Source: Clostridiales bacterium | GTDB taxonomy: Bacteria; Bacillota; Clostridia; Oscillospirales; Oscillospiraceae | DNA length: 64,000 nt | Direction of reading: 5' to 3' | Assembly: GCA_012520295.1 (NCBI GenBank) | Contig: JAAYOP010000137.1 | Location: 631-64,630, forward strand | Part shown: positions 21,677 to 63,074 of the stretch, in pieces | How the letters are laid out: each line of letters opens with the position of its first letter | Position numbering within the stretch: the first letter of the stretch is position 1 | Notes under the pieces: model-generated | What the model saw: the letters and a program-made list of their open reading frames with translations, nothing else | The model's database searches: none | What the model was told of the DNA's origin: nothing | Made by a program: the position numbers and the translations under genes

Positions 21677-21698
21677 TTCTCTTCACATCCTTCCCCTA

Positions 21699-22490
21699 TC
21701 AAATTACATGCTTTTCTCTGAGCTTATTGACAAGAGCCGTCGCCATTTCCGTGACGGTACCACTGAGCATCTCGCCCTTGCCCTTTGGTTCTGGAGTGAA
21801 GCTTCGCATCACCTGGGTCGGGGACGCTTGTAGTCCGCATTCGCTGGGGTCCAGGCAAACGTCGTTTTCATTCCAAACCGTTATATAGTTTCCTTCGTAA
21901 GCATCAAGAATTCTGCCAATGTTCATGTATCTGGGCTCATTGAGTTCTTTTACGGCAGTCAATAAGCAGGGAAGAGGAACTTCAATTACTTCATAACCGT
22001 CCTCCAGCTGACGCTCAACAACTATCGATTTATCCTTCAGCTCACGAATTTTCCTCACATATGTAACAAAAGGAATTTCAAGTCTCTGAGCGACCTGCGG
22101 ACCCACCTGAGCCGTGTCGCCGTCTATAGCCTGACGTCCCGCAAAAATCAGATCATAGTCGCCTATCTTCTTTATTCCCTCGGCAATGGTCGTCGAGGTT
22201 GCACAGGTATCGGCTCCTCCGAAGGCACGGCTGGAAAGCAGATATGCGTGATCGGCACCCATGGCGATACACTCCTTGAGCATATATTCTGCCTGGGGAG
22301 GACCCATTGATATTACGTTTACTGTTGTTCCCGGCTTTTCATCCTTGATTGCAAGGGCTGCTTCCAAAGCGTTTGCGTCATCGGGATTCAATATGGAAGG
22401 TACACCTTCGCGAATCAGGGTCCCCTTTACCGGATCTATCTTGACTTCAGTGGTATCCGGAACCTGTTTTGCACATACAATTATTTTCAT
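21699..22490 (-). CDS. etfB: electron transfer flavoprotein beta subunit
   Basis: A 263-aa ORF has a typical EtfB N-terminus (MKIIVCAKQVPDTTEVKIDP). It lies upstream of etfA. Confidence 0.9.
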   Translation of the reverse strand: MKIIVCAKQVPDTTEVKIDPVKGTLIREGVPSILNPDDANALEAALAIKDEKPGTTVNVISMGPPQAEYMLKECIAMGADHAYLLSSRAFGGADTCATSTTIAEGIKKIGDYDLIFAGRQAIDGDTAQVGPQVAQRLEIPFVTYVRKIRELKDKSIVVERQLEDGYEVIEVPLPCLLTAVKELNEPRYMNIGRILDAYEGNYITVWNENDVCLDPSECGLQASPTQVMRSFTPEPKGKGEMLSGTVTEMATALVNKLREKHVI

Positions 22491-22516
22491 ATTCTTCTCT
22501 TTCTCTCCTCTCCTGC

Positions 22517-23656
22517 TTACTTCAGCAAATTGTTAGCTATGATCATCTGCTGAATCTGAGAAGTTCCTTCAAAGATGGAATTTATACGGGCATCACGATA
22601 AAGGCGCTCAATTCTGTAATCCTTTATATAGCCGTAGCCGCCGTGGATCTGAAGAGCTTTATATGCAACCCTGTTGCACATTTCGGAGGCATAGTACTTA
22701 GCCATAGAGCAGTACATACTTGCCTTTCTGTCTCCTTTGTCCTTCATAACGGCTCCATTGTAAAGGAGCTCTCTTGCCGCCTGCAGCTCGGTGGCCATAT
22801 CGGCTATCATAAAGCTGATGGCTTGGAAATCCGCTAATCTTCTGCCGAACTGCTTGCGTTCCTTAGCATACTTTATCGCCTCATCAAGGCAGGCTTGTCC
22901 AACTCCCACAGACTGAGCGGCAACACCAAGGCGCCCATAGTCAAGGGTCTTCATGGCATTGGTAAAGCCTTTGTTTTCCTCTCCGAGCAGGTTGTCCTTA
23001 TGTACCCGAACATCCTCAAAAATAATGTCGCTGGTAGGACACCCTATGATTCCCATCTTATCCTCATTCTTTCCGAAGGATATTCCAGGCAGATCCATAT
23101 CTACGATAAATGTTGATATCCCGCGGGATCCCTTTGTCACATCGGTCTTTGCGAATACTATCGCAAAATCCGAGATAGGTGCGGCCGTAATAAAGGTCTT
23201 GCGTCCGTTGAGCACATAGTAGTCCCCGTCACGAACCGCGGTAGTAGCTACGGCGCCTGCGTCGGACCCTGCGCCGGGCTCCGTGAGAGCAAAGCACGGG
23301 TATTTTTCACCTCTTGCAACAGGAGCCAGATATTTTTCCAGCTGTTCCTGGGTACCGGCCAACAGAAGAGGGCCGCTTCCAAGGGAGTTTGCTCCACTGA
23401 CATAAATCGATGTGACCATGCTGACTCTGGCAATCTCTTCGATGACTATTACATATGCCAGTGTATCTGCTCCCTGACCATCCAACTCCTTGGGAACCTT
23501 GATGCCGAACAGGCCGTTTTTCCTAATCTTCTCAAGGAGTTCCTCAGGGAATTCACCTGTCTGATCAATTTGATCCTGCATCTCAGAGGGAATCTCTTTT
23601 TCAGCAAACTCTCTGGCAAGTTTTCTGATTAATTCATACTTTTCCGAGAAAATCAT
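22517..23656 (-). CDS. acyl-CoA dehydrogenase family enoyl-CoA reductase
   Basis: The ORF shows the acyl-CoA dehydrogenase fold, ending in the C-terminal YEGTSQIQ-type motif (FEGTSQIQQMII). The start was set at MIFSEKYELIRKLAREFAEKEI. It is adjacent to etfBA. Confidence 0.85.
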   Translation of the reverse strand: MIFSEKYELIRKLAREFAEKEIPSEMQDQIDQTGEFPEELLEKIRKNGLFGIKVPKELDGQGADTLAYVIVIEEIARVSMVTSIYVSGANSLGSGPLLLAGTQEQLEKYLAPVARGEKYPCFALTEPGAGSDAGAVATTAVRDGDYYVLNGRKTFITAAPISDFAIVFAKTDVTKGSRGISTFIVDMDLPGISFGKNEDKMGIIGCPTSDIIFEDVRVHKDNLLGEENKGFTNAMKTLDYGRLGVAAQSVGVGQACLDEAIKYAKERKQFGRRLADFQAISFMIADMATELQAARELLYNGAVMKDKGDRKASMYCSMAKYYASEMCNRVAYKALQIHGGYGYIKDYRIERLYRDARINSIFEGTSQIQQMIIANNLLK

Positions 23657-23714
23657 AATTGTGTTTTTGTCTCCTTTCCGATTTTCTGCCGTCATAGGGC
23701 CGGCAGAACGAGCC

Positions 23715-24947
23715 CTATGGTTTTTTGTTGATTACTATCTTGCCGGCTTCAAGAAGCTCATCAATTTCACTGCGGGAATAACCCAACTCCATCAGAACAT
23801 CATCTGTATGTTCTCCGAGATAAGGGGCTTTATTCAGCTCTGGTAAACCAGCTTCCTCAAAGTGAACAGGATTTCTCACGAGAATACGCTTTCCGGTAAC
23901 AAACTCATCTTCGGCAAAGCAGTCGTCTGCCCATGCCTGCTCATCCTCCAGCACTTCCTTCCATACCTGCGCTATGGCATGAGGAATATCGGCTTTTGTC
24001 AGGCGTTCGCAAATATCCTTTGCGTCCAGCTCTTTAAATCGCTCACATATGGCATCATACAGCAGCGGGCGGTTATCCCCGTCCAAAAGATGCTCCATTG
24101 TGTCAAATCTGGGATCGGAAAGCCAGCATTCCATATCCAAAGCTTTTGCGAAATCTGGGAATTGGAGATCGTATACGGGCATACACATCTGGATAAAACG
24201 CCCGTCCCTTGTCTCATAACAGCAGTTTAACGGATTTGGGCTTTCTCTTTTAGAAATCGGATAGGACAGCATATCATACTGCGCGGTCTGTATCATCGTG
24301 CCCTGCATAAAGATGGCTGTTCCCAGCAGACTGACAGATATTTTTTCTCCCTTTCCGGTTCTTTGCGCCTGATATAGAGCCGCACAAATACCTGCGGCAA
24401 GACACATACCAACCTGGTGGTCTCCTATGCTGGGTACAAGGTTCATGGGTTCTGTTCCCTTTTCATAGAGACTGCCCAGCATACCGGAGCGGGCCCAGAA
24501 GGCGGTGTAGTCATATCCGGGAAGATCCTTGTCAGGTCCCTTTTCTCCATATCCTGTTATGGAGCCATAAATCAGTTTCGGGAACTTTTTCTTCAGGGTC
24601 TCATAATCAAGCCCCATCCTCTCAAGAGCCTTCGGTCGCCAATTGGTTATAAAAACATCCGCTTCGGAAACTAGCTTCATGAACGCTTCAAAGCATTTTG
24701 GGTCTTTAAGGTTCATTGCGATAGCTCTTTTATTGCCGTTCTCAAGTTCAAAAGTGACATTCTCAGCCATTCCCAGCTCAGGTCTTCCCTCGGCCATAGG
24801 TGCATGTCGCGTCCCGTCACCGCTCAGGCTTTCTACTTTTATAACGTCCGCGCCCTGGTCGGCAAGAAATCTCGCACATGCAGGGGCTGCTATGAAAGTT
24901 GCCAGCTCTACAACTTTGACTCCGTCTAAAGCTCTGCCTTTGTTCAT
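23715..24947 (-). CDS. family III CoA-transferase (CaiB/BaiF/FldA-like)
   Basis: A 410-aa ORF has the family-III N-terminus (LDGVKVVELATFIAAPACARFLADQGADVIKVE). Confidence 0.85.
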   Translation of the reverse strand: MNKGRALDGVKVVELATFIAAPACARFLADQGADVIKVESLSGDGTRHAPMAEGRPELGMAENVTFELENGNKRAIAMNLKDPKCFEAFMKLVSEADVFITNWRPKALERMGLDYETLKKKFPKLIYGSITGYGEKGPDKDLPGYDYTAFWARSGMLGSLYEKGTEPMNLVPSIGDHQVGMCLAAGICAALYQAQRTGKGEKISVSLLGTAIFMQGTMIQTAQYDMLSYPISKRESPNPLNCCYETRDGRFIQMCMPVYDLQFPDFAKALDMECWLSDPRFDTMEHLLDGDNRPLLYDAICERFKELDAKDICERLTKADIPHAIAQVWKEVLEDEQAWADDCFAEDEFVTGKRILVRNPVHFEEAGLPELNKAPYLGEHTDDVLMELGYSRSEIDELLEAGKIVINKKP

Positions 24948-25175
24948 TCTTTTGCTCCTTTCATTAATTCAAAAAACATTCAACGAATCTAAAACGCATT
25001 ATGGGCATGGTTTATACGTTCCTGGTCCGGTTTTTTCGACAGACAATTGAATACACACAATACAGAGATATTATCACAGCCTGCCCATATGTTCAATGTA
25101 TATTTCTAACGGTATTTCGATATGTTTCCCAATATAATTCCGGCACTATACCGAACCTGTTCAGTTTTATGTCCT

Positions 25176-25210
25176 GCAAAACCATGTGCTTGGTCGTCAC
25201 ATGGTTTTGC
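25176..25210 (-). terminator. 13-bp perfect hairpin just after the thiolase stop (no clear U-tract)
   Basis: GCAAAACCATGTG-9 nt-CACATGGTTTTGC lies 13 nt beyond the stop at 25223. It could be a terminator or an RNA-stability element. Confidence 0.35.
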
Positions 25211-25222
25211 TATACAAATCTT

Positions 25223-26404
25223 TTATACCTTCTCCCAGATTGTAGCCACACCCATGCCCCCGCCTATGCACAGTGTCGCAAGACCGAATTTTACATTGTC
25301 GCGCTTTTCCATTTCGTGAACAAGGGTTACGATAATGCGGGCTCCGGAAGCTCCCACAGGATGTCCCAGGGCAATCGCTCCGCCGTTTACATTGACCTTT
25401 TCCATGTCAAATCCCAAATCACGGGCAACGGCTATGCTCTGGGCGGCAAAAGCCTCATTGGCCTCTATAAGGTCCATGTCCTCTATTTTCATATTGCATT
25501 TATTAAGGGCATCGCGGGTGGCGGCAACGGGACCTACACCCATTATCTTCGGATCCACGCCTCCTTGGCCCCACGATACCAGCTTTGCAATCGGTTTTAA
25601 TCCATATTTTTTAACAGCGTCTTCGGAAGCAAGAATTATTGCCGCAGCACCGTCATTAATTCCGGAAGCGTTGCCCGCCGTGACTCTTCCGCCATCGGGC
25701 TTGAAGGCTGGTCTGAGACCTTTTAGAGCCTCTGCACTGGTGTTACGCGGGTGCTCATCAACCTCAAAGTTGACTATCTGTTTTTTAACCTTTACGGGAA
25801 CGGGAATAATCTCATCTTTAAAACGTCCTGAGGCAATAGCGGCAGCTGCTTTTTCCTGGGATTTCAGGGCAAACGCGTCCTGTTCTTCCCTTGTAATCTC
25901 CCATTTGTCACAGATATTTTCGGCCGTTATTCCCATGTGGTAATTGTTAAACACATCCCACAGGCCGTCGTTTACCATGGTATCAACCATTGTCGTATTA
26001 CCCATACGGGCACCGAAACGGGCAGTGTTTACCGCATAGGGAGCAGCCGACATGTTTTCCGTTCCGCCGGCAAGAACAACCTCCGCGTCCCCCGCCCTTA
26101 TAGCCCGGGCAGCTTCGATAACGCTCTTCATGCCGGAGCCGCAAACCATGCCAACCGTATAAGCGGGAACTTCAACCGGAATTCCTGCTTTTACAGCTAC
26201 CTGCCGGGCAACGTTTTGCCCAAGTCCCGCCGTCAGTATACATCCGAACATGACCTCGTCAATGTTTTCGGGCTTCAGCCCAGCCCGTTCAATCGCAGCT
26301 TTTGCTACAATAGCTCCCAGCTCCGGCGCCGGCGTATCCTTCAGGGAACCTCCAAAAGTGCCAATGGCAGTCCTGCACGAGCTTACTAAATAAATGTCCT
26401 TCAT
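25223..26404 (-). CDS. acetyl-CoA C-acetyltransferase (thiolase II)
   Basis: A 393-aa ORF has the active-site Cys context (VCGSGMKS) and C-terminal thiolase signatures ([29 protein letters not shown]). Confidence 0.9.
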
Positions 26405-26767
26405 AGCTAACCTCCGAAATTATTATTATCTTAAAAAACTCCGTAACGCTTGTCTGATGACAGACATCACAGTAACAGACACCAGGCCCGGGGAAGGTGC
26501 ACCCGGCATTATGTAAACTTTAAAACGCGTTCAGTTTTCAATAACAAAAGTATATACCCATCTTTAATAAAAATCAACACATTGGGCAATTCTTTTGATT
26601 TTTTTATAAGTACAAATCTTTCCGGTGTATGGTGTATAATATTATCAAATCCGGACAACAGGAGTAGCTTGAATGAAGCTCGTTATCGTGATATACTCTG
26701 AAAACCGGATGTGTTCAAGCCCATAAGGCTTTTCACAAAAAACAACTCGTTCGGAGGCGGATATATA

Positions 26768-27346
26768 ATGAACACAGCCGTTATTCTGGCAGGCGGAAAG
26801 AGCCGCCGTATGGGAAGGGACAAACTCAAGCTTCCCTTTCGCGGTAAAACACTGCTTGAGGCTGCCGTAGAGCGATTTTCCAGGAACTTTGATAATGTTT
26901 ATGTCAGTGTAGCAGACACCAACAAATATCCTTATGTAAATGCCCGAAAAATCGAGGATATTTACAAGGGCTGCGGTCCTTTGGCTGGCCTTCATGCGAC
27001 CCTGAAGCAAACCGATGACGAGGGTGTTTTTCTCGTGGCTGCAGATTTGCCCTTTTCAGACCCTATGGCTGCCAAAAAAATCATCCAGTTGGCAGGCGAA
27101 CATGACGCCGCCATGCTACTCGATGAACAGGGGCGCTATGAGCCCTTATTTGCCTATTACAAAAAAAGCATTCTTCCGGCAATCGAGACGCTTTTAGAAA
27201 ACGGAGAATATAGAATGATAAGAGCGCTGGAAACCTTCTCTTTAAGAAAGCTTACAAAGGAGGATCTGGGCAGCTTCTGGAATGACAATCTGCTGCTCAA
27301 TATAAACCTGGTTGATGACTATAAAAAGCTGATGGAAAAACAATAG
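26768..27346 (+). CDS. mobA: molybdenum cofactor guanylyltransferase MobA
   Basis: The ORF has the N-terminal motif MNTAVILAGGKSRRMGRDK. The start at 26768 is preceded by GGAGGCGG. Confidence 0.8.
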   Translation: MNTAVILAGGKSRRMGRDKLKLPFRGKTLLEAAVERFSRNFDNVYVSVADTNKYPYVNARKIEDIYKGCGPLAGLHATLKQTDDEGVFLVAADLPFSDPMAAKKIIQLAGEHDAAMLLDEQGRYEPLFAYYKKSILPAIETLLENGEYRMIRALETFSLRKLTKEDLGSFWNDNLLLNINLVDDYKKLMEKQ

Positions 27347-27507
27347 CCAACAGGTTATATCCTTTATTCCTCCGGAGAGGCTAATGCCGAAAACGTAATG
27401 GTATTACAAAACTCCTTGAACTTTGGTTTTCATAGTGATAGTATAATTGTATTATTAAGCCTCCGGCAGGAAGCTGCTTTAAATTTTAAAGAAAAGGAAA
27501 TGATGAT

Positions 27508-27870
27508 ATGAGCTACAAAATCACAAGAAAAAATGAAGCCTATAAATATGAGGCAAAGGGTCATTTTGACGTCCGCACAACCAGACTTCACGATCCACAG
27601 GATGTCAACAACGGCGTCATCACTATGGGACTGAGTCATTTTCTCCCGGGCGGCGGCTGTGAATACGGCTCAAACCTTCATGAAACCATTTACTACATAA
27701 TAGAGGGCCAGATGTATCTTGAGTGTGAACTGGACACTCCCGACGAGGTTAAGACCACACTCTATGCCGGGGATTCCTTCCACTGCGGCCCCGGAACGAA
27801 AAAATCCGTTGTGAACACCGGCACCACCTCATGCCAGATGCTGGTTGTACTGGTAAAATCCCAGCAATAA
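27508..27870 (+). CDS. small cupin-domain protein
   Basis: A 120-aa ORF has cupin-like beta-barrel motifs (GGGCEYGSNLHETIYYIIEGQMYLE ... GDSFHCGPGTKKSVVNTG). Its function is unknown. Confidence 0.6.
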   Translation: MSYKITRKNEAYKYEAKGHFDVRTTRLHDPQDVNNGVITMGLSHFLPGGGCEYGSNLHETIYYIIEGQMYLECELDTPDEVKTTLYAGDSFHCGPGTKKSVVNTGTTSCQMLVVLVKSQQ

Positions 27871-27928
27871 ACAACTGACATGTTCATATTTCTAATTTGT
27901 AAATATGATTTATGAATATTCTTTATAA

Positions 27929-27953
27929 CAGGCAGACCAGGCAGGTCTGCCTG
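27929..27953. terminator. 10-bp perfect hairpin between the convergent cupin and LysR genes
   Basis: The hairpin is CAGGCAGACC-AGGCA-GGTCTGCCTG. The flanking U-tracts are weak. Confidence 0.5.
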
Positions 27954-27969
27954 AAGCATATTTCCTGTC

Positions 27970-28860
27970 TTAAAACAGCTCTTTTACAACCTCCAGAAAG
28001 AGCCGAGCAGCCGGATTTGTTATTTTTCTGTGCCAGGCAATTACATATGTACGCAGGGTATCATCTCCGGGGATGCGTGTGAAGGAAACGTTTTCGGAAT
28101 AGAATACTCGGGAAAGAGCCTCCGGAATTATGGAAATACCAAGCCCTGCGCCCACAGACAAGAGCACTGCCTCCGCCCGGTCATACTGACAAGTTACATT
28201 TGGTTTATATCCGCGGGCCTCGCATACTTTCGCTATTTCATTATAGAGCGCCGGGCCGTCCGTTTCGGAGACGGCTATGAACCGCTCACCCCCCAGTTTT
28301 GAAAAGTCCAGCGGCTTGCCTGCCATGGGATGATTCTTAGGAAAAGCTACACAAAGGTGGTCGGTATTTGATATAATATAGTCAAAGGTCTCTCCGGCAG
28401 GAACCATTTCCAGCACTGCGAAATGGACGTCATATTTCGCTTCATTCATCGCAATTACCTGGCTTCGTCCGGAGGTGAAGTTTATATCCACAGTAATATC
28501 CGGATATTTTGATGAAAAGGCCGACAGACATTTTGACAAAACCGCACTGGAAGTAGTAAGCGCCGCAATCGATACATGGCCCTTCCACCCTTCCTCCATC
28601 TGTCTGATTTGAAAAGCGGCTTTCTCGGCTATTTCTATCATTTCCACTGCATAGGGAAGGAAGTTATTGCCTGCGTCCGTAAGGGTTACGCTTCGTCTGT
28701 TGCGTATAAAGAGCTTACTTCCAAGATATTTTTCAAGCTCGCCTATGCGATGGCTTATAGCAGGCTGTGTTAACCCGTTTCTTCTTGCCGCCTCAGAAAA
28801 GTTGAGAGTTTGCGCCACCGAAACAAAATACTTCAATTGATTTATATCCATAATATTCAC
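27970..28860 (-). CDS. LysR-family transcriptional regulator
   Basis: A 296-aa ORF has the N-terminal LysR HTH (MDINQLKYFVSVAQTLNFSEAARRNGLTQPAISHRIGELE). It is divergent from the first Mo-enzyme operon. Confidence 0.9.
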   Translation of the reverse strand: MNIMDINQLKYFVSVAQTLNFSEAARRNGLTQPAISHRIGELEKYLGSKLFIRNRRSVTLTDAGNNFLPYAVEMIEIAEKAAFQIRQMEEGWKGHVSIAALTTSSAVLSKCLSAFSSKYPDITVDINFTSGRSQVIAMNEAKYDVHFAVLEMVPAGETFDYIISNTDHLCVAFPKNHPMAGKPLDFSKLGGERFIAVSETDGPALYNEIAKVCEARGYKPNVTCQYDRAEAVLLSVGAGLGISIIPEALSRVFYSENVSFTRIPGDDTLRTYVIAWHRKITNPAARLFLEVVKELF

Positions 28861-28962
28861 ATCACCTCCGTGGTAGCTTTTGTCAAACAGACATATTGTT
28901 ATATCATTAGCTATATATGGATAGTATACATACAGGTCTTCTGATACTATTATGCAAAATAA

Positions 28963-28983
28963 TTTCTATTACGTCAATAGAAA
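28963..28983. promoter_or_regulatory. candidate LysR operator (interrupted dyad containing T-N11-A)
   Basis: TTTCTATT-ACGTC-AATAGAAA has perfect 8-bp arms. It is centred about 25 bp upstream of the -35 of the divergent operon promoter. Confidence 0.5.
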
Positions 28984-28997
28984 ATTTTATTAAGGCG

Positions 28998-29026
28998 TTG
29001 ACATGTATATAAAAATAAGTTATCAT
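28998..29026 (+). promoter_or_regulatory. candidate sigma-A promoter of the first transhydroxylase-like operon
   Basis: The sequence reads TTGACA-17 nt-TATCAT. It lies about 90 nt upstream of the ATG at 29119. Confidence 0.55.
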
Positions 29027-29118
29027 GTGATATGAAATAGTTATTATAAGTGAATGTAGAAGATATTGATTTTCCGGTGTCAATTTCATTTTAAAATCGG
29101 AAACGGGAGGTATATATA

Positions 29119-31845
29119 ATGGGTGTAAAGTTCAAACCTGATGTCCAAAACATAGTGAGCTACAGCCTAATGGGGCCAGAGAGTGGCGGCCCTTGTCTTG
29201 TCGAATCTACAGACGGCAAAATAACAAGAATAAGACCTTACGCATATGACATGGAGTACATCAAAGAAAACTGCAATCCATGGAAGATGGAAGCCAGAGG
29301 CAAGGTGTTTGAAGCCCCCAACCGGGCCACAATTACTCCCTTTGGTCTTGGCTACAAGTACAGGGTCTATTCGCCAAACCGGGTCAAATATCCCCTCAAG
29401 CGGGTGGACTGGGATCCAAAGGGTGAACGCAACCCACAAAACAGAGGTAAATCCGGCTATGTGCGTATCTCCTGGGATGAAGCGGCACAGATAGCCGCCG
29501 ATGAGCTGAAAAGGATTAAAGAAACCTATGGTCCGGAAGCCGTGCTCTGCCAGTCGGACATGCACGGCGAGGGCAAGAATATCGCCCCAAGCCACGGCTG
29601 TCCGAACCGGCTTTTGGCTTTGATGGGCGGCTATACTACCCAAATGCGGAATATGGATAGCTGGGAAGGCTGGTTTTGGGGAGCAAAGCATGTTTGGGGC
29701 TGCGAGCCTGTAGGTGAGATGATGCCCATGACGAACTTATACCCCGATATAGCTAAACATGCCGATTTGCTGCTTTTCTGGGGCTGCGACCCTGAAACGA
29801 CTCCCCTGGGTGTTGTCAGCCATATGCCCAGTCGACTGTGCTATTGGTTAACCGAAATAGGTTTAAAAAGCATTTATATCTGCCCGGATCTCAATTACGG
29901 TGCTGCCGTACATGCCGACAAATGGATACCTATCCTTCCCAATACCGACGTTGCCCTGCAGCTTGCAATCGCGTATATCTGGATTACCGAGGACACCTAT
30001 GATAAAGAGTATATAGATACCCACGCATATGGATTTGATAAGTTTGAGGATTATGTACTGGGCCGTGAGGATGGTATACCCAAGACACCTGAATGGGCTT
30101 CTGAGAAATGCGGTGTCCCCGAGTGGACAATCAAGGCTCTCGCCCGGGACTGGGCAAAAAAGACCGCCAGCATTTTGCACGGAAACGGTGGCCCCTACAT
30201 TCGCGGCCCCTACTCCACCGAACCCGCCCGGCTCGAGGTGATGCTGCTGGGAATGCGTGGCCTCGGAAAACCCGGCGTACACCAGGCAAAAATGATAGAA
30301 TGGAATATGTGGAACAAGGATTATCCCGTTCCCTATCAGGGGCAGTTTGTACCTCAGATGCCTCATATTTGCGATGCTTTGCGTACTGTGGACGGGGACG
30401 TGGGCCCGGAAATAAACTTAAGAAGGTTTTTGCTGACTCCTGAACAGGAGAAGCGCGCGCCTGAGCTCAAGGAGCTGTTCAAGCAGTTGCCGGCGCCCCT
30501 TCAATTCATTCCCCGCACCCTTATACACAAAGCCATATTGGACGGCCATGCGGAATGGTATGGACTGCAGTGCTTCAGCTCCAGCCAGATACCCGACGAG
30601 AATAATTACCGCAAGCCCACAACGGAATACCAGTTTGAAAAGATGGTATATCCCAGGCCCGGGCTATCGAGAATTCACATGATGTGGACCGATGCCCCGT
30701 GCAATGTTACATGCTGGAACAACGGGAATCTGCAAATCAAGGCAATGAGAAGTCCGGAGATTGAGTGCATAATTGCCCAGCACCCATGGCTTGAAAACGA
30801 CTGCTATTTTGCAGACCTTATATTCCCCGTTGCCACAAAGCACGAAATGATAGACATAGGAAACGATTTGAGCAGCGGCGGATATACCTCCGTCTATCTC
30901 ACAGGTAAGTGCTGCGAACCTATCGGCGAGTCTCTTTCCGACTTTGACGTGTGCGCAAAGGTTGCCGAAAAGTTGGGCAAGGAGTACTACGATGCCTATA
31001 CAGGAAACCTTTCTGATGAGGAAAAGGTGAGATTTTTCTACAAAGCAACCGGCTGTGAGGAGTATATGACCTGGGAAGAGTTCCAGGAGAGGAAAATATT
31101 TATCGTACCCTGCAAGCCAGACGCCCAGGAGCTTCCCGCCGGTCTGTATAATTTCTATAAAGACCCTGAAAATAACCCGCTTTCAACCCCTACCGGGCTG
31201 CTGGAATACTCGTCAACAGCGTTGGAAAAGCACTTTCCTGACGATCCTGAGCGGCCTCCGGTACCAAAGTGGATTGAAAAAAGCGAATCCCACGACGAGA
31301 GACTGTCAAGCGAACGTACAAATAAATATCCGTTGCTGTGTATGTCCAATCACGGAAGATGGCGCATGCATGCCCAGTGTGACGACATAGTCCCAAACCG
31401 CGAGGTTGAGACCATGAAAATACGCGCAAAGGACGGCTACCAGTATGAACCTCTGTGGCTGCATACCAGCGAAGCCGAAAAGCGTGGTATTAAGCACGGT
31501 GACATCGTTAAAGTTTTTAATGAACGTGGAACTGTGCTCTGCGGGGCCTATGTGACCGAGCGGCTTATACCAAACACCTGTTATGTGGACCACGGATCTC
31601 GGCTCGACCCCATCGTTCCCGGGGAATTGGACCGGGGTGGCTGCATAAATTCAATCACTCCCACCTCAATGACATCAAAAAAAGCTACCGGTATGGCCGT
31701 CAGCGGCTTTCTTGTGGAGGTTGCCAAGGTTACCGACGAGGAGATGGAGAGATGGAAGAGAGATTATCCTGAAGCCTTTGCCCGCAAGATTGACGAAGCC
31801 GCAGGCGTTTGTCTTGAAGGCTGGCTGATAAGCGATGACTGCTGA
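29119..31845 (+). CDS. molybdopterin (bis-MGD) oxidoreductase large subunit, divergent pyrogallol hydroxytransferase (AthL)-like paralog 1
   Basis: A 908-aa ORF belongs to the DMSO-reductase superfamily. It has no twin-arginine signal and no N-terminal Cys cluster. It shares AthL-type blocks with paralog 2 (ITRIRPY, NPQNRGKSGYVRISWDEA, DSWEGWFWG, TYDKEYI, GIPKTPEWA, MRGLGKPG, DRGGCIN). A strong GGGAGG RBS precedes it. Confidence 0.6.
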   Translation: MGVKFKPDVQNIVSYSLMGPESGGPCLVESTDGKITRIRPYAYDMEYIKENCNPWKMEARGKVFEAPNRATITPFGLGYKYRVYSPNRVKYPLKRVDWDPKGERNPQNRGKSGYVRISWDEAAQIAADELKRIKETYGPEAVLCQSDMHGEGKNIAPSHGCPNRLLALMGGYTTQMRNMDSWEGWFWGAKHVWGCEPVGEMMPMTNLYPDIAKHADLLLFWGCDPETTPLGVVSHMPSRLCYWLTEIGLKSIYICPDLNYGAAVHADKWIPILPNTDVALQLAIAYIWITEDTYDKEYIDTHAYGFDKFEDYVLGREDGIPKTPEWASEKCGVPEWTIKALARDWAKKTASILHGNGGPYIRGPYSTEPARLEVMLLGMRGLGKPGVHQAKMIEWNMWNKDYPVPYQGQFVPQMPHICDALRTVDGDVGPEINLRRFLLTPEQEKRAPELKELFKQLPAPLQFIPRTLIHKAILDGHAEWYGLQCFSSSQIPDENNYRKPTTEYQFEKMVYPRPGLSRIHMMWTDAPCNVTCWNNGNLQIKAMRSPEIECIIAQHPWLENDCYFADLIFPVATKHEMIDIGNDLSSGGYTSVYLTGKCCEPIGESLSDFDVCAKVAEKLGKEYYDAYTGNLSDEEKVRFFYKATGCEEYMTWEEFQERKIFIVPCKPDAQELPAGLYNFYKDPENNPLSTPTGLLEYSSTALEKHFPDDPERPPVPKWIEKSESHDERLSSERTNKYPLLCMSNHGRWRMHAQCDDIVPNREVETMKIRAKDGYQYEPLWLHTSEAEKRGIKHGDIVKVFNERGTVLCGAYVTERLIPNTCYVDHGSRLDPIVPGELDRGGCINSITPTSMTSKKATGMAVSGFLVEVAKVTDEEMERWKRDYPEAFARKIDEAAGVCLEGWLISDDC

Positions 31846-31871
31846 ATACTAAAACGAGAGAGGAGCAGCTT

Positions 31872-32687
31872 ATGTCAAAAGCACTTGTGATTGATGTAGC
31901 TCGCTGCAGCGGCTGCTATAACTGTCAGCTGGCCTGCAAGGACGAGCATGTCGGAAACGATTGGACTCCATATGCAAAACCGCAGCCTCAAATCGGACAG
32001 TTCTGGATCAAGGTCCATGAGAATGTCTGCGGAACAATTCCAAAGGTAAGAATACATTATATACCCAAGCTCTGTAATCACTGCAGAAAAGCTCCCTGCC
32101 TTGAAGCCTGTGAGCACAATGCGATATATCGCAGGGACGATGGATTTATTATCATTAACCCTGAGAAATGCACAGGCTGCAAAGCCTGTCAGGAGGCCTG
32201 TGAATATGACGCGATCTTCTACAATGAAGAGCTGAAAATTGCACAAAAATGTACAGGCTGTGCCCATCTGCTGGATCATGGCTATGAACTCCCGCGCTGC
32301 GTGGAGGCATGTCCTACAGACGCGATGAAATACGGGGAGGAAGAGGATTTAAAAGACTGGATTGAGGGTGCAACGGTAATGATACCCGAAACAGGCTGCC
32401 ATCCGAGAGTGTATTACAGAAACATACCCGGCAAATTCATAGCCGGTACCGTATACGACCCCATTGAGAAAGAGGTCATTATCGGCGCAAAATGCATCCT
32501 CAACTCTGGAGGCAAGGTTTGGCAGGTTAATACAGACGAATACGGAGATTTTTGGTTCGAGGACCTTCCCGTCGGTCTGTTTGACCTGGTAATCTCCGCC
32601 CCGGGATTTGAATATAAGGGCTTTTACAATCTTAAAACATCAAAGGATCTGAATTTGGGCGATATACCATTGGAAAGAGCAAAATAA
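31872..32687 (+). CDS. Fe-S small subunit (BthL-like) of paralog 1, with C-terminal Ig/carboxypeptidase-regulatory-like domain
   Basis: A 271-aa ORF has four Cys groups of 4Fe-4S type (CSGCYNCQLAC, CNHCRKAPC, CTGCKACQEAC, CTGCAHL...CVEAC). A beta-rich tail follows (GTVYDPIEKEVIIGAKCIL...GDFWFEDLPVG). Confidence 0.65.
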   Translation: MSKALVIDVARCSGCYNCQLACKDEHVGNDWTPYAKPQPQIGQFWIKVHENVCGTIPKVRIHYIPKLCNHCRKAPCLEACEHNAIYRRDDGFIIINPEKCTGCKACQEACEYDAIFYNEELKIAQKCTGCAHLLDHGYELPRCVEACPTDAMKYGEEEDLKDWIEGATVMIPETGCHPRVYYRNIPGKFIAGTVYDPIEKEVIIGAKCILNSGGKVWQVNTDEYGDFWFEDLPVGLFDLVISAPGFEYKGFYNLKTSKDLNLGDIPLERAK

Positions 32688-32693
32688 ACCCAC

Positions 32694-32721
32694 GGGGAAA
32701 CCATTTGCAAATGGTTTCCCC
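32694..32721 (+). terminator. strong hairpin after the first operon
   Basis: GGGGAAACCATTT-GC-AAATGGTTTCCCC is a perfect 13-bp inverted repeat 7 nt after the stop. The downstream U-tract is weak. Confidence 0.55.
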
Positions 32722-32896
32722 GATGTATTTGACACGGCGTTGCAATTGGCTTCTATTTCTTGGAAATATGGGCTGAAGTTAGTGGTAAATATGCAGAAAT
32801 TATGTATATATTGTTTTTGACTATGAACATGTTTTCTGATATACTGAATTGCAGACACAAAACAGCAATATCATCGGTAAAATAACCTTCGTACCC

Positions 32897-32927
32897 TTGA
32901 CATTGGAACAGTTCCATGGTTTATAAT
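32897..32927 (+). promoter_or_regulatory. MerR-type promoter (19-bp spacer with central dyad) of the second transhydroxylase operon
   Basis: The sequence reads TTGACA-19 nt-TATAAT. The spacer contains the dyad TTGGAAC-A-GTTCCAT. A 36-bp stretch (32894-32929) is 31/36 identical to 39710-39745. Confidence 0.6.
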
Positions 32928-32950
32928 AACAAAGTTATATCAGGTTACAT

Positions 32951-32976
32951 AAAACAGCCGCTCGTCGGCTGTTTCT
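32951..32976 (+). promoter_or_regulatory. terminator-like hairpin inside the 5' leader of the second transhydroxylase operon
   Basis: AAAACAGCCG-CTCGT-CGGCTGTTTCT lies between the MerR-type promoter and the RBS at 33014. Confidence 0.4.
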
Positions 32977-33028
32977 GATGACATTGCTGTATCTGTATAA
33001 TAAATTTAAAATATAGGAGGCTTTGTAT

Positions 33029-35596
33029 ATGGCTGAGAGAATCACCTATAGCATTTGTGTCGGTGGTCCGATTGCCGTTCACACCGAAAACGGTGTTATA
33101 AGGCGTATCAGACCTCTGATATTCGATGAGTCCGATCCGAAGCCATGGACCATCAAGGCTCGCGGCCGGGAATTCAGTCCGCCGAAACAGACGACGGTAT
33201 CACTGGTAGCTCTGCAGGAAAAGGACAGGACCTATGCGTACGATCGTCTGAAGTATCCCATGATTCGTGAGGACTTTGTCGAAACTCCCGACGGTAAAAA
33301 CCGAAATACGGAAAACCGCGGTAAGTCCGGTTACCGTCGCGCAACCTGGGATGAAGCACTGGATCTCATAACCCGCGAGATAAAAAGAATCCAGAAAACC
33401 TACGGTCAGGAAGGTGTTACCGCCTTGACAAGCTCCCACCACTCCTGGGGACTGGTGGGCTACAAGCTGAGCGCCTTTAAGAGGTTTTTTAACATGTTGG
33501 GCTATACCCGGGTAATCGATAACCCCGACTCCTGGGAAGGCTTCCACTGGGGCGCTACTCACACGTATGGCTACTGGTGGCGTTTGGGAGGGCCGGAGCC
33601 CTTTGATCTGCTTGAGGATGCTCTTCAAAATGTGGAAACAATGATAATGTGGTCTCACGACCCTGACACCACAAGAGGCGGCTATGCCGCAAACGAAAGC
33701 GCTATCTGGCGCCACTGGATGAAAGAGCTTGGAATACAGTTTATCTACATAGATCCGTTTAATAACTTCTCCAGTGTTAAAAACGGCGATAAGTGGATTG
33801 GTCCGAGAATGGGCACAGATGCGGCTCTGGCCGAAGCCATTGCGTATGTTTGGCTTACGGAAGGCACTTATGATAAGGAGTACATTGAAAAGCACGCTCA
33901 CAGGTTTGACGAGTGGGCAGATCACATCCTCGGCAAGGGAATTGACCGCACACCCAAAACACCCAAATGGGCGGAAGAGATCACCGGTGTTAAGGCGGCC
34001 GACATAAAGGCTATAGCCCGCCGCTGGGCCTCCACAAAAACAATGGGCGGTTCCGGAATGCGCGGCGGCTTCGGCGGCGTATGCCGTACTGTCGGAGGAG
34101 CCGATTTTTCACGCATTCTTGTATTGCTGTTTGCCATGCAGGGCATGGGCAAGCCCGGAAGAAATATGTGGACCGGCACAACCGGCGCTCCAATGGACTA
34201 TAATTTCTGGTTCGGCGGATATGCTGATCCTAAGTCCACCATTGCAGGTGCTCCCATTGCCGACTATACTCCGGAAAACCCGGTTAAACAGGTGCTTTAC
34301 CGCACAAACCTTCCGGATGCTATACTCGATGGCCACTATGAGTGGTATGGCGAAGGCTTCTGTGGCGGCTCTCTGGAAGAGCAGTTTACAGAGCATGTAT
34401 ATCCTTTGCCCGGCTACAACAGAGTTCATATGCTCTATCGTTACGGCGGCTCTTTCTTTGGCACCATGCTTGATACCAACAAGTGGGCAAAAATGTATAA
34501 GAGCCCCGAGCTTGAGTTCGTTGTAAATCAGGATATTTACTTTAACCCCGAAGCTCGCTTTGCAGATGTTATTCTGCCCGCCTGCACAAACCTCGAGCGC
34601 TATGACATCGGCGAGTTTTGTAATTCCGGTAACTCCGGTTACCAGAGCCATAGCCAGACCGGAAACAACTGGCAGGTCGTTGTGTTCCAGGATAAGGCCA
34701 TTGAGCCTCTGTGGGAGTCCCGCTCCGATTACTGGATTTTCTCGCAGCTGGCCGAACGCCTTGGCTTCGGTGAGAAGTATACCGAAGGACGCGATGAGCT
34801 GGCATGGTGCAAGCGTTTTTGGCAATTTAGTGATTTGAGTAAGAGAATCAGCTGGGAAGACTTTATGAAGAAGGGCTATTATGTAGCCGGTGTGCCCGAA
34901 AACTGGGAGCGCCACTATGGCTTCAGATGGTTTGCCGAAGGTTATCCCTGCGACACTCCAAACCATAAGCCTTTCCAGGAAGAAGGCAAGCTGGGTACGC
35001 TCACAGGCAAATTTGAGTTCGTTTCTGAGAGCCTACTCAAATACGCACCCGATGACGAGATTCGTACTCCCATTGCTTTCTACAAACACAGCTGGGAAGG
35101 ACACAAGTCCCTGCTTATCAAACGCTTCCCCTACGCTCTTATATCCCCTCACCCACGCTTTGACTATCATACCCACTACCAGCAGCACTGCATGTGGCTC
35201 TGGGAGATACCGCAGAACCGCAAGGTTGTCAACGGTAACCCCTATCAGGTTCTTCGCATCAATCCGAAAGTTGCAGAGGAAAAAGGCATCAAGGAAGGCG
35301 ACATTGTGCGTATGTACAATGACCGGGGATCCGTTCTCGGTGTTGCCCATATCACAAATCGCGTAAAGCCGGAAACAGTCCATATGTATGCTTCCTCAGG
35401 TATATATAACCCCGTAGTTTACGGTGAGATTTCAACTGACAAGGGCGGTTGCACAAATCTGCTCACACCGAGCCAGCTTATGGGCCGCAAGGCTCCCGGA
35501 ATGGTCCCGAATACAACGCTAGTTGATATCGAGAAATATGATGTTCCTGAGGAGTATGGTCAGGGATTTGAAAAAATATTAGAGGAGGTTAAATAA
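33029..35596 (+). CDS. athL: pyrogallol-phloroglucinol transhydroxylase large subunit-like Mo-bisMGD enzyme (paralog 2)
   Basis: The ORF encodes about 855 aa from the ATG at 33029 (AGGAGG 9 nt upstream). It has no Tat signal and no FS0 Cys motif. Extended blocks match my recollection of Pelobacter AthL (TSSHHSWGLVGY, NPDSWEGFHWG, PFDLLEDAL, TYDKEYIEKHAHRFDEWADHILGK, MQGMGKPGRNMW, ILPACTNLERYDIGEF, YNDRGSVLGVAH). The identity is from memory and no search was run. Confidence 0.7.
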   Translation: MAERITYSICVGGPIAVHTENGVIRRIRPLIFDESDPKPWTIKARGREFSPPKQTTVSLVALQEKDRTYAYDRLKYPMIREDFVETPDGKNRNTENRGKSGYRRATWDEALDLITREIKRIQKTYGQEGVTALTSSHHSWGLVGYKLSAFKRFFNMLGYTRVIDNPDSWEGFHWGATHTYGYWWRLGGPEPFDLLEDALQNVETMIMWSHDPDTTRGGYAANESAIWRHWMKELGIQFIYIDPFNNFSSVKNGDKWIGPRMGTDAALAEAIAYVWLTEGTYDKEYIEKHAHRFDEWADHILGKGIDRTPKTPKWAEEITGVKAADIKAIARRWASTKTMGGSGMRGGFGGVCRTVGGADFSRILVLLFAMQGMGKPGRNMWTGTTGAPMDYNFWFGGYADPKSTIAGAPIADYTPENPVKQVLYRTNLPDAILDGHYEWYGEGFCGGSLEEQFTEHVYPLPGYNRVHMLYRYGGSFFGTMLDTNKWAKMYKSPELEFVVNQDIYFNPEARFADVILPACTNLERYDIGEFCNSGNSGYQSHSQTGNNWQVVVFQDKAIEPLWESRSDYWIFSQLAERLGFGEKYTEGRDELAWCKRFWQFSDLSKRISWEDFMKKGYYVAGVPENWERHYGFRWFAEGYPCDTPNHKPFQEEGKLGTLTGKFEFVSESLLKYAPDDEIRTPIAFYKHSWEGHKSLLIKRFPYALISPHPRFDYHTHYQQHCMWLWEIPQNRKVVNGNPYQVLRINPKVAEEKGIKEGDIVRMYNDRGSVLGVAHITNRVKPETVHMYASSGIYNPVVYGEISTDKGGCTNLLTPSQLMGRKAPGMVPNTTLVDIEKYDVPEEYGQGFEKILEEVK

Positions 35597-35597
35597 C

Positions 35598-36434
35598 GTG
35601 AGATATGGTATAGCTATCGATACCGCCCGCTGCATGGCTTGCTACAACTGTTTCATGGCCTGCAAAGATGAGCACTGCGGTCATGCCTCCAAACTGTCCG
35701 CCCCCCAGCCCCATACGGGCCAGTTCTGGATGAACATAATCGAATGGGAACGCGGCGACAGACCTGGCAACATCAAAGTTGCAACTGTACCCACTCCCTG
35801 CTCACACTGCCAGGACCCGTCTTGCATGAAAGTGGCTAAAAACGGAGCCGTCTATAAAAGAGATGACGGTATAGTAATAATAGACCCAGAAAAATCAAAA
35901 GGCCAGAAAGCTATTGCCGACGCATGTCCCATAGGTGCAGCCTTCTGGAATGAGGAGCTTCAAATAGCTCAAAAGTGCACAATGTGCGCGGAGCTGCTTG
36001 ATGAAGGCTATAAAATGCCCCGCTGCGTGGAATCTTGTCCAAATCAGGCGTTGATTTTCGGTGATTTGGACGATCCCAACAGCGAAATATCCAAAAAAAT
36101 CGCTGCCGGCAAGGTAACACCTCTAAAGGGACTCGAGGGAATTGAAACAAACGTAGTACATCTGAATATACCCAGCGTCTTTCTTGCCGGTACAGTTTAT
36201 CTGCCGGATGATGAAGTGGCAATTGGCGCCAGTGTAACTCTGACCTGCAAGGAAACCGGCTCGGTATTCAAAACAGAGACGAATTGGGCCGGGGACTGGG
36301 AAGCAGAGGACCTGGAAAAGGACAAGGAGTTCGACATAGTCATTGAAATGGACGGTTACAAGCCGGTTAAGCTGTCTGCCAAAACCGACACGGATCATTT
36401 TGTTGACGAAACATTGCTTGAACCCGCAAAATAG
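35598..36434 (+). CDS. bthL: transhydroxylase small Fe-S subunit-like protein (paralog 2)
   Basis: A 278-aa ORF starts at GTG 2 nt after the alpha stop. It has ferredoxin-type Cys groups (CMACYNCFMAC, CSHCQDPSC, CTMCAEL...CVESC) and a C-terminal beta domain (GTVYLPDDEVAIGASVTL). Confidence 0.7.
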   Translation: MRYGIAIDTARCMACYNCFMACKDEHCGHASKLSAPQPHTGQFWMNIIEWERGDRPGNIKVATVPTPCSHCQDPSCMKVAKNGAVYKRDDGIVIIDPEKSKGQKAIADACPIGAAFWNEELQIAQKCTMCAELLDEGYKMPRCVESCPNQALIFGDLDDPNSEISKKIAAGKVTPLKGLEGIETNVVHLNIPSVFLAGTVYLPDDEVAIGASVTLTCKETGSVFKTETNWAGDWEAEDLEKDKEFDIVIEMDGYKPVKLSAKTDTDHFVDETLLEPAK

Positions 36435-36634: not shown

Positions 36635-37834
36635 ATGCGTGATGTAGTAATAGTAGAAGCATGTCGTACCGCAGTTGGCAAAATTGGCGGTACTCTTAAG
36701 GATATTCCTGCCGAGGAGCTTGCCCGCGTTGTCGTTCAAGGCATACTCGACAGAAGTAAAATTGACCCCAAGGATATAAACGAAGTTATGATGGGCCACT
36801 GCCGTCAAACTTCCGATAATCCAAATATTGCCCGAATAGTTGCCCTGCGGTGCGGGATTCCCGAAGAGGTGCCCGCCAAGACCATTATGCGCCAGTGCGC
36901 TTCGGCTATGACTGCCGTAGTGGATGGCGTCATGAGCATACAGGTAGAGGACAATGACGTGGTATTAGCCGGAGGGACAGAGAGCATGTCCACTGCCGTC
37001 TTTTATATCCGCGGCGCCCGCTACGGACTGGGCACAGGCAATACAACTCTGGTAGACTCACTCACGGAAGGGCAGTTCCAGAGCCAGCCTCAGGAGATAT
37101 ACGGATCTTATAATATGGGTGTGACCGCCGATAACGTTGCTGCCAAATTAAACATTTCCCGCGAAGACGCCGATGCTTTTGCCCTTCAGAGCCAGCTTCG
37201 CGCCGCCAAGGCAATCAAAGAAGGTAAATTCAAGGATGAAATCGTACCCGTTATAGTCCCGCAGAGGAAAAAGGATCCCATCGTTTTCGATACTGATGAA
37301 TTCCCGAGAGAAACCAGCATGGAGAAGCTTGCAAAACTAAAGCCTGCTTTTACAAAAGACGGTATAACAACTGCGGGTAATTCCTCCGGCAGAAATGACG
37401 GCGCTTCCGCACTCCTTATAATGTCTGCCGACAAGGCAAAGGAGCTGGGACTCAAGCCCCTTGCGAGATTTGTCAGCTATGCCACAACCGGCCTGGACCC
37501 GCGCATAATGGGCTTAGGCCCTGTTGAAGCCACTAAGAAGGCGCTGAAAAGAGCAAATCTGACCCTTGATGACATAGAGCTTATAGAGCTCAACGAAGCT
37601 TTTGCCGCCCAGTCCATCGGTTGTATCCGTGAGCTCGGCATTGAAGACAAAATGGATATTATAAATGTCAATGGCGGAGCTATCGCCCTTGGTCATCCTG
37701 TCGGCTCCTCCGGTTGCCGAATAATAGTGACCCTTCTCAATGAGATGCGTCGCAGGGGTAATAAATACGGTTTGGCGACTCTCTGTGTTGCCGGCGGTAT
37801 GGGGCAGGCCGTAATTATTGAAGCACTGTATTAA
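36635..37834 (+). CDS. acetyl-CoA C-acetyltransferase (thiolase), second copy
   Basis: A 399-aa ORF has thiolase signatures ([29 protein letters not shown]). Confidence 0.9.
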
Positions 37835-40758: not shown

Positions 40759-40789
40759 CTTGAAATCAGTAAAGGGACTGGTCATAATA

Positions 40790-42703: not shown

Positions 42704-42812
42704 TATAACTCATGTATTATAAAAAATAATAAAAAGTAAAATACTAAAGAACCACAGGTTTATCGGAGTTTCCCGCTGACCGGTGGTTATAAGAAAGGAA
42801 TATAGTTATAAT

Positions 42813-58329: not shown

Positions 58330-58341
58330 ATGGAGAAGATT

Positions 58342-59463: not shown

Positions 59464-59464
59464 T

Positions 59465-60786: not shown

Positions 60787-60833
60787 AAACGGGCATTATA
60801 TCAGATTCGGCAGCATAGAAGAGGGTGAAAGAA

Positions 60834-61097: not shown

Positions 61098-61127
61098 ATA
61101 TTAATGATAGTATTTCTTTCAAAATGA

Positions 61128-63074
<1,947 letters not shown>

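Follow-up and report, generated by a model that had tools for sequence, protein, structure and literature searches.

The question raised by this locus is what reaction is catalyzed by a second molybdenum enzyme encoded, under a regulator of its own, just upstream of a candidate pyrogallol-phloroglucinol transhydroxylase. The DNA analyzed (the window) is a stretch of 64,000 nucleotides from contig JAAYOP010000137.1 (positions 631 to 64,630, forward strand) of Clostridiales bacterium assembly GCA_012520295.1, and all coordinates refer to it. The enzyme in question is termed alpha1-beta1 and its downstream neighbor alpha2-beta2; both resemble AthL/BthL (PgtL/PgtS), the pyrogallol transhydroxylase of Pelobacter acidigallici (PDB 4V4C). 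All of the open reading frames (ORFs) reported for the cupin, LysR, alpha1 and beta1 genes in a first-pass annotation, made from the letters of the window alone, were recovered at the same coordinates, as were the elements around them:

27508-27870, + strand: cupin gene, 120-aa monocupin (Pfam Cupin_2)
27970-28860, - strand: LysR-type regulator gene, 296 aa (HTH_1 and LysR_substrate), divergent from alpha1
28967-28979: candidate LysR box TATTACGTCAATA (T-N11-A), within a longer dyad at 28958-28988
28998-29026, + strand: alpha1-beta1 promoter, sigma-70 type, TTGACA-17-TATCAT, 11 of 12 consensus positions
29119-31845, + strand: alpha1, 908-aa catalytic subunit of the molybdenum-bis(molybdopterin guanine dinucleotide) (bis-MGD) type, AthL-like, without a twin-arginine translocation (Tat) signal or FS0 motif
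31872-32687, + strand: beta1, 271-aa ferredoxin subunit with 16 Cys and a C-terminal Ig-like domain
32693-32722, + strand: GC-rich hairpin with a 13-bp stem, 6 nt past the beta1 stop codon
32897-32927, + strand: alpha2-beta2 promoter, MerR-type, TTGACA-19-TATAAT, with dyad GGAACAGTTCC in the spacer (read from the sequence)
33029-36434, + strand: alpha2-beta2 pair of the AthL/BthL type, candidate pyrogallol-phloroglucinol transhydroxylase (alpha2, 33023/33029-35596; beta2, 35598-36434)

Tentatively, and with a probability that we would place a little short of even, alpha1-beta1 is read as a cytoplasmic, LysR-controlled bis-MGD enzyme that would hydroxylate or dehydroxylate a phenol, forms a distinct AthL-like subfamily and would exchange electrons through beta1. 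Its family membership was established with Pfam, which placed AhtL-like_1st, Molybdopterin and Molydop_binding domains in both alpha1 and alpha2 and matched neither Molybdop_Fe4S4 nor TAT_signal in either; direct inspection of the two N-termini revealed no RR motif and no Cys cluster. Both beta subunits combine Fer4_11 with a C-terminal, Ig-like CarboxypepD_reg domain, scoring 39.4 bits in beta1 (over the cut-off) and 28.5 bits in beta2 (under the cut-off, E = 2e-6). The architecture originally proposed for both pairs, that of AthL/BthL with Ig-like betas and without Tat signal or FS0 motif, was thereby upheld. Alpha1 belongs to the dimethyl sulfoxide reductase (MopB) superfamily (PF00384, E = 1.2e-18; PF01568, E = 7.7e-15), and its AhtL-like N-terminal domain (PF21423, 42.3 bits against a cut-off of 27), Ser ligand motif and lack of a Cys motif place it in the Ser-coordinated PgtL/RhL branch. 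AthL was its best match in a PDB sequence search (4v4c_A, 463 bits, against 781 bits for alpha2 and AthL), and a Foldseek search with the AlphaFold2 (AF2) model of alpha1 (pLDDT 92.3, pTM 0.92) also returned 4v4c_A at the top (TM 0.83/0.87), with MtsZ, DorA and TorA at about 0.73. Acetylene hydratase (2e7z) matched at only 42 bits and alpha1 has no Tat signal, which sets it apart from the Coriobacteriia catechol dehydroxylases.

To compare the active sites, AthL residues 6-869 were rebuilt from the printed alignment and aligned with 115 proteins of the alpha1 clade, 62 of the alpha2 clade and 57 of another, third AthL-like group, 53-60% identical to alpha2. AthL Ser175, Asp174, His144 and Trp176 correspond to alpha1 S181, D180, H149 and W182, which are retained in 115, 114, 115 and 114 of the 115 alpha1-clade proteins, respectively, and are kept in the AthL clades as well. 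Alpha1 N178-M-D180-S181-W182-E-G pairs with AthL N172-P-D174-S175-W176-E-G, and Ser181 is the predicted Mo ligand. Other positions of the pocket differ between the AthL clades and the alpha1 clade:

AthL His145: H in the AthL clades, G in the alpha1 clade (G150)
AthL Met146: S/N in the AthL clades, E in the alpha1 clade
AthL Trp147: W in the AthL clades, G in the alpha1 clade (G152)
AthL Gly148: G in the AthL clades, K in the alpha1 clade
AthL Tyr152: Y in the AthL clades, P in the alpha1 clade (P157)
AthL Arg153: K in the AthL clades, S/A/C in the alpha1 clade (S158)
AthL Tyr404: Y in the AthL clades, I/F/C in the alpha1 clade (I417, to within a few residues)

H145, Y152, K/R153 and Y404 were retained in all AthL-clade sequences (119 of 119), so that alpha1 does not have the pocket expected of a pyrogallol-phloroglucinol transhydroxylase. 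The SSHHxWG motif of AthL, which alpha2 keeps together with Tyr404, is replaced by an invariant S-D-M-H-G-E-G-K in the alpha1 clade (D147-M-H-G-E-G-K153 in alpha1). Conservation of all substrate-contacting residues, which the first-pass annotation had equated with simple redundancy, was therefore not observed; pocket residues are replaced across the clade and, as the alpha1 pocket differs from that of AthL, simple redundancy with alpha2 is unlikely. The two motifs quoted in that annotation do align, alpha1 QSDMHGEGKNIAPSHG pairing with alpha2 TSSHHSWGLVGY. The insertion of about 50 aa that it described in alpha1 is real as extra length (about 46 aa in total) but consists of several short clade-specific insertions rather than one (388-395, 411-414, 428-437, 444-455 and 493-503), lying around the AthL Tyr404 loop. 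A C-terminal extension (875-908) is also conserved in the alpha1 clade.

The clearest mechanistic difference from AthL/BthL was found in the small subunit. Beta1 contains 16 Cys in four CxxCxxCxxxC groups and is predicted to carry four [4Fe-4S] clusters. BthL (4v4c_B), the crystal structure of which we take to contain three [4Fe-4S] clusters, has no equivalents of beta1 C80, C100, C103 and C106 in the alignment, and nor does beta2; both have 12 cluster Cys against 16 in beta1, which departs from the three-cluster beta of the pyrogallol-phloroglucinol transhydroxylase. All 16 Cys were present in 36 of 46 beta1-type partners (78%) and in none of 18 beta2-type subunits. They are also kept by the beta partners of two Tat-clade relatives (L091 and L092), while the beta of locus L085, partner of an AthL-like protein 58% identical to alpha2, does not have them all. 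In FdnH, NarH and DmsB, four-cluster ferredoxin subunits of this superfamily, the distal cluster is ligated by the last Cys of group II together with the first three of group III, and it is from this cluster that electrons pass to the next partner. As the fourth-cluster Cys are present and their cluster is distal in these proteins, beta1 apparently has a complete wire to the surface. The predicted fourth cluster, which had been missed earlier, argues against a self-contained transhydroxylase. The original suggestion of a hydroxylase or transhydroxylase for a different phenol was thus supported in part, the replaced pocket making redundancy unlikely but the additional cluster speaking against hydroxyl transfer without an outside partner.

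Identity between alpha1 and alpha2 is 33%, in agreement with the strong divergence noted by eye, and between beta1 and beta2 it is 42%. Relatives were collected from 1.84 billion cluster representatives (651 at E < 1e-30), and a neighbor-joining tree (n = 83, 100 bootstraps) was rooted on bona fide S/N-oxide reductases. Bootstrap support was 100% for each of three groupings, namely the alpha1 clade, AthL with alpha2 and their relatives, and alpha1 with the Tat-bearing representatives. Alpha1 therefore does not cluster with AthL, the AthL-alpha2 clade excluding it, and the earlier description of alpha1 as a diverged paralog of alpha2 has to be abandoned; by this tree it is a distinct deep lineage shared with Tat-bearing proteins and not a drifted copy. 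The closest proteins beyond the alpha1 clade are 41-52% identical, nearer than AthL, and most of them bear Tat signals.

If the preferred reading of alpha1-beta1 as an electron-exchanging phenol (de)hydroxylating enzyme is correct, a phenolic hydroxyl would bind at Mo as in AthL, and no hydroxyl would be passed to a bound tetrahydroxybenzene cosubstrate. Instead, a polyhydroxylated aromatic would gain or lose a hydroxyl in a net two-electron reaction, reductive removal being the likelier of the two in a fermenter, and the four [4Fe-4S] clusters of beta1 would relay the electrons to or from ferredoxin or another soluble carrier. The compound produced (or consumed) would connect to the AthL-type enzyme and the adjoining phloroglucinol pathway, and the LysR protein would turn the operon on in response to the substrate phenol. 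On general thermodynamic grounds, reduction seems the more plausible direction in a fermentative Clostridium, which lacks acceptors of high potential. Candidate reactions are the removal of a hydroxyl from pyrogallol, tetrahydroxybenzene, hydroxyhydroquinone or gallate, including the conversion of pyrogallol to resorcinol. Resorcinol has been reported in the urine of cattle given gallic or tannic acid in their feed (PMC9118128). A wider and more doubtful claim would make the alpha1 clade a new class of cytoplasmic, ferredoxin-linked phenol (de)hydroxylases in Clostridia, for example a pyrogallol-to-resorcinol enzyme, or one that makes or consumes 1,2,3,5-tetrahydroxybenzene for AthL-type enzymes. 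To our knowledge, the in vivo origin of this cosubstrate has never been explained.

The alpha1 clade comprises at least 120 clusters at 90% identity (64-100% identical to alpha1), every one annotated only generically, and at least 592 stretches from a collection holding one genome per species were confirmed to carry a member. Among the best 80 loci, almost all were from metagenome-assembled genomes (MAGs) of Oscillospiraceae, Sporobacter or Papillibacter, and the record names of clade members point to rumen, deer, yak, sheep, termite, human gut and digester sources. Gene context was counted in the 21 alpha1 loci that had 8 kb or more of sequence on each side. An AthL-type gene was present in 10 of these, and the same 10 carried at least one phloroglucinol-pathway gene (three or more in 9 of them); the tie of alpha1 to phloroglucinol metabolism is thus frequent and not obligatory. 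In 6-9 other loci, too, a MobA homologue is encoded a short way upstream of the alpha1-type gene, and ModABC and a molybdate-type regulator were found in orthologous loci. The neighbors at stand-alone loci were heterogeneous (MFS, MATE and SSF transporters, ModABC, a molybdate-type regulator and MobA) and offered no hint of a substrate; a generic short-chain dehydrogenase/reductase (SDR) 26% identical to phloroglucinol reductase (PGR) and two small ORFs without a Pfam match were also seen there. In several Sporobacter and Papillibacter MAGs (L015/L003 7105-19400, L013, L009 and L012), an AthL-type gene is followed by two or three alpha1-type paralogs, which are 60-82% identical to alpha1 and adjoin thiolase, PGR and MerR genes. 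These arrayed paralogs vary in the pocket, with M, E or Q just before Asp180 and H-I, N-F or M-R at the Tyr404 position.

Several points weigh against an electron-exchanging phenol enzyme tied to this pathway. The remaining 11 of the 21 well-flanked loci have neither AthL-type nor phloroglucinol genes, and of the 23 AthL-type metagenome loci that extend 4 kb or more upstream, only 6 had an alpha1-type gene. No electron-transfer partner gene was conserved beside alpha1-beta1 in the examined loci. With 10 of 46 beta1-type subunits lacking it, the fourth cluster is not essential clade-wide, and we know of no role for the three clusters of AthL itself, so that clusters alone are no proof of net redox chemistry. 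In the pocket, the roles of AthL His144, Asp174, Tyr404 and Arg153 are presumably those given by Messerschmidt et al. 2004, only the residue numbering being confirmed, and the equivalence drawn at Tyr404 falls in a remodelled loop. Separately, a role for alpha1 as the obligate partner of AthL, priming its cosubstrate, was considered and is weakened by the neighbor count: with an alpha1-type gene beside so few AthL-type genes, alpha1 is better described as an accessory module.

The main rival, rather unlikely in our estimate, is a true transhydroxylase without net redox chemistry that acts on another pair of compounds, either hydroxyhydroquinone with tetrahydroxybenzenes or gallate and substituted pyrogallols. 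Alpha1 shares the fold, N-terminal domain and Ser/Asp/His core of AthL, often adjoins AthL-type and phloroglucinol genes, and is found in paralog arrays that recall multi-step transhydroxylation. Pelobacter massiliensis reportedly carries out sequential transhydroxylations of hydroxyhydroquinone with tetrahydroxybenzenes, and we know of no genes assigned to its enzymes; some beta1-type subunits, moreover, have three clusters only, like BthL. This explanation is opposed by the replacement of AthL Tyr404, Arg153, Tyr152, Trp147 and His145 in alpha1, by the presence of the fourth cluster in most beta1-type subunits and in Tat-clade relatives, and by the export of the nearest relatives of alpha1, which suits redox enzymes better than cytoplasmic isomerase-like ones.

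Improbable, in turn, is the reading suggested by automatic annotations, in which the enzyme would not act on phenols at all and would be a soluble reductase of S-oxides, N-oxides or other oxo-compounds. DorA, TorA and MtsZ are the next-best structure and sequence matches of alpha1, half of the loci are without a phenol context, and a four-cluster beta would fit a reductase. Alpha1, however, reached only 331.8 bits against the S/N-oxide reductase model TIGR00509 (bisC_fam; cut-off 1017.55), and it fell far under every cut-off of the TorA and DmsA equivalog models. Its N-terminal domain, moreover, is the AhtL-specific one, and its partner is a beta of the BthL type that carries an Ig-like domain, neither of which is known to us from DorA, TorA or BisC. 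Alpha1 is also strongly enriched beside phloroglucinol genes that are otherwise rare.

A redundant isoenzyme for the conversion of pyrogallol to phloroglucinol is very unlikely: alpha1-beta1 does adjoin an AthL-type pair of the same architecture, but it falls in a different, fully supported clade at the low identity given above, has its substrate-side residues replaced clade-wide, is served by a separate regulator and promoter, and stands alone in half of the well-flanked loci. Alpha1 is also intact and under purifying selection. Orthologues of the alpha1 type at 83-86% identity gave dN of 0.10-0.13 with dS saturated, for which reason selection is stated qualitatively and not as a dN/dS ratio, and 16 orthologues showed a mean column identity of 75% with hundreds of invariant positions. 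With full-length ORFs, an identical protein in an independent assembly, dN far under dS and a conserved promoter and LysR box, and nothing in its favor beyond the divergence from alpha2, a decaying or silent copy is exceedingly improbable, and the pseudogene that the first-pass annotation had allowed for was not found.

Compared with characterized systems, alpha1-beta1 is closest to AthL/BthL, likewise a two-subunit, cytoplasmic enzyme without Tat signal or FS0 motif, with the AhtL-like N-terminal domain, a Ser Mo ligand accompanied by Asp, His and Trp, and a beta of ferredoxin and Ig-like barrel domains. It is set apart by its identity to AthL of about 32-38%, separate clade, five replaced pocket residues, remodelled Tyr404 loop and C-terminal extension, and beta1 differs from BthL in the Cys for the fourth [4Fe-4S] cluster. 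The catechol dehydroxylases of Coriobacteriia are Tat-exported and respiratory, and alpha1 differs from them in being cytoplasmic and in having an N-terminal domain and a beta subunit of the AthL/BthL type. These bis-MGD enzymes of gut bacteria (Dadh, Hcdh, Cadh, Cldh and others) remove phenolic hydroxyls reductively from diet-derived polyphenols, and a single genome may encode a whole family of such paralogs, as it may of alpha1-type proteins (PMC7028382, PMC11887054). In phylogenies they fall with acetylene hydratase, away from AthL (PMC7028382). Should the wider claim be true, the alpha1 paralog arrays would be the Firmicutes counterpart of these families. RhL and DbhL belong to the Ser-coordinated PgtL/RhL family and are water-dependent phenol hydroxylases with net electron transfer, DbhL being represented in the source by a reference title (PMC10100899). 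RhLS of Azoarcus anaerobius and DbhLS of Thauera aromatica AR-1, compared here by description only, therefore offer the kind of net-redox chemistry proposed for alpha1, and the Thauera DbhLS pathway is reportedly also LysR-controlled (DbdR). Both come from nitrate-reducing Betaproteobacteria, which have electron acceptors of high potential, whereas the hosts of alpha1 are fermentative Clostridia.

The Tat-bearing AthL-like proteins (P0242-P0273) resemble alpha1 in their C-terminal extension, four-cluster beta and D-x-H-G-E-x-K-like motif (e.g., P0246), and differ in their twin-arginine signals, after which many have a long linker rich in Thr and Val; given these signals, they are expected to act outside the cytoplasm. 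P0243-P0272 make up a large radiation of such proteins, which pair with BthL-like Ig-domain betas (L090-L092). For P0242, which has no clear Tat signal, the NCBI name is from Nitrososphaeria archaea (one of ten names looked up). In the genome of L001 (OW818679.1), an 833-aa AthL-like gene 58% identical to alpha2 lies at L085, apart from the LysR-alpha1-beta1 locus, with a three-cluster beta. Genes for a TRAP transporter (DctPQM), an SSF transporter and a PucR-type regulator flank it, a setting that hints at a carboxylated aromatic substrate for this third clade.

In the literature searched, no work on the alpha1 clade was found, only work on AthL, RhL, the Coriobacteriia catechol dehydroxylases and Ucd. 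The AthL-like family members characterized there were PgtL/AthL and RhL (PMC10100899; PMC7028382), giving the family two reaction types, pyrogallol transhydroxylase and resorcinol/dihydroxybenzoate hydroxylases, and a 2026 review of gut molybdenum dehydroxylases covers only the Coriobacteriia catechol dehydroxylases and the xanthine-dehydrogenase-type Ucd (PMC13515148). Anaerobes degrade tannins and flavonoids, which hold much of the carbon in plants, by funnelling them into phloroglucinol, and assignment of a substrate to the alpha1 clade would fill a gap in anaerobic polyphenol catabolism and provide a marker gene for the step concerned in rumen and gut metagenomes. Such an assignment could also reveal what makes the same Mo-Ser scaffold perform hydroxyl transfer in one case and net redox (de)hydroxylation in another. 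The clade is regarded as a good enzyme-discovery lead and not as a new kind of system.

Control by a divergent LysR regulator, as first proposed, is well supported. The protein encoded at 27970-28860 is of the LysR type (PF00126, E = 9.9e-23; PF03466, E = 1.4e-28), and its orthologue lies directly upstream and divergent of alpha1-type genes in several loci, including the stand-alone L001, where the arrangement occurs without phloroglucinol genes. This synteny and the T-N11-A box recur in at least five other loci. The core TAT(T/C)ACGTCAATA was found in the LysR-alpha1 intergenic regions of L038, L001, L007 and L037 and is degenerate in L005; the exact 17-nt dyad pattern matched its own contig alone, the shorter core being what recurs. 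The center of the box, a candidate site for the regulator, is about 25 bp upstream of the alpha1 -35 element and the box lies about 20-25 bp upstream of the promoter across loci, and this conserved element offers a simple handle for finding the inducer. The proposed TTGACA-17-TATCAT promoter was found at 28998-29026 and is conserved in orthologous loci as TTGACA-17-TAT(C/T)AT, with the same hexamers and 17-nt spacing in L038, L001 and L005. The hairpin beyond beta1 probably ends the alpha1-beta1 transcription unit, terminator function being suggested by its position while the + strand T-tract is weak. The MerR-type promoter described for alpha2 was likewise confirmed, with dyad GGAAC-A-GTTCC in its 19-nt spacer and a MerR gene at 38803-39615. 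As read from these elements, alpha1-beta1 and alpha2-beta2 are two separate transcription units. No riboswitch or other RNA element was found in an Rfam scan of 26300-33100.

The genes around alpha1 and alpha2 are those by which Clostridium scatologenes is described as degrading phloroglucinol anaerobically (PMC10470551), with a MobA-like gene upstream and SSF transporter and MobB genes farther downstream of the CoA transferase:

26711-27346, + strand: MobA-like NTP (nucleoside triphosphate) transferase for MGD cofactor synthesis (Pfam NTP_transf_3)
36635-37834: thiolase
37941-38738: SDR, likely PGR
38803-39615, - strand: MerR regulator
39801-40688: cyclase
40760-41752: 3-hydroxyacyl dehydrogenase (3HCDH)
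41789-42703: BKACE
42783-44133: CoA transferase

The cupin, initially considered a partner of alpha1, proved to belong to this setting instead. At least 485 homologues were found, and members of the same family sit between PGR and 3HCDH in phloroglucinol clusters without a molybdenum enzyme (L088/L089, 7001-7360) or adjoin cyclase-3HCDH-BKACE (L086, 7001-7366); among alpha1 loci, the cupin was present only where a phloroglucinol cluster was also present. A PDB sequence search with the cupin gave a best E of 0.76, and Foldseek with its AF2 model returned generic monocupins such as TM1459, which was uninformative. The cupin is thus not specific to alpha1 and may be an accessory component of the phloroglucinol pathway; the paper defining that pathway makes no mention of a cupin (PMC10470551).

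For alpha2, ATG 33029 is the most likely start, as first annotated. In the public assembly containing locus L004 (6393-8959; ENA ERZ2648110, coverage about 2.9x), alpha2 is broken into genes of 498 and 376 aa, which is probably an assembly frameshift, the window holding a single ORF. Upstream, on the - strand, a butyrate-type module (20498-26404) encodes a thiolase, a family III CoA-transferase, an acyl-CoA dehydrogenase, EtfB and EtfA, the last with an N-terminal 2x[4Fe-4S] ferredoxin domain; the module could supply or take up low-potential electrons in the vicinity of the molybdenum enzymes. Downstream of the phloroglucinol cluster, an ORF resembling FlK (fluoroacetyl-CoA thioesterase, PF22636; 46565-47053) overlaps the end of mobB. 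Cumulative GC skew is lowest at about 26-28 kb, where gene strand flips from - below to + above, and dnaA, dnaN, recF and gyrB lie at 56.7-63 kb (56719-63074), about 30 kb from this switch and not adjacent to it.

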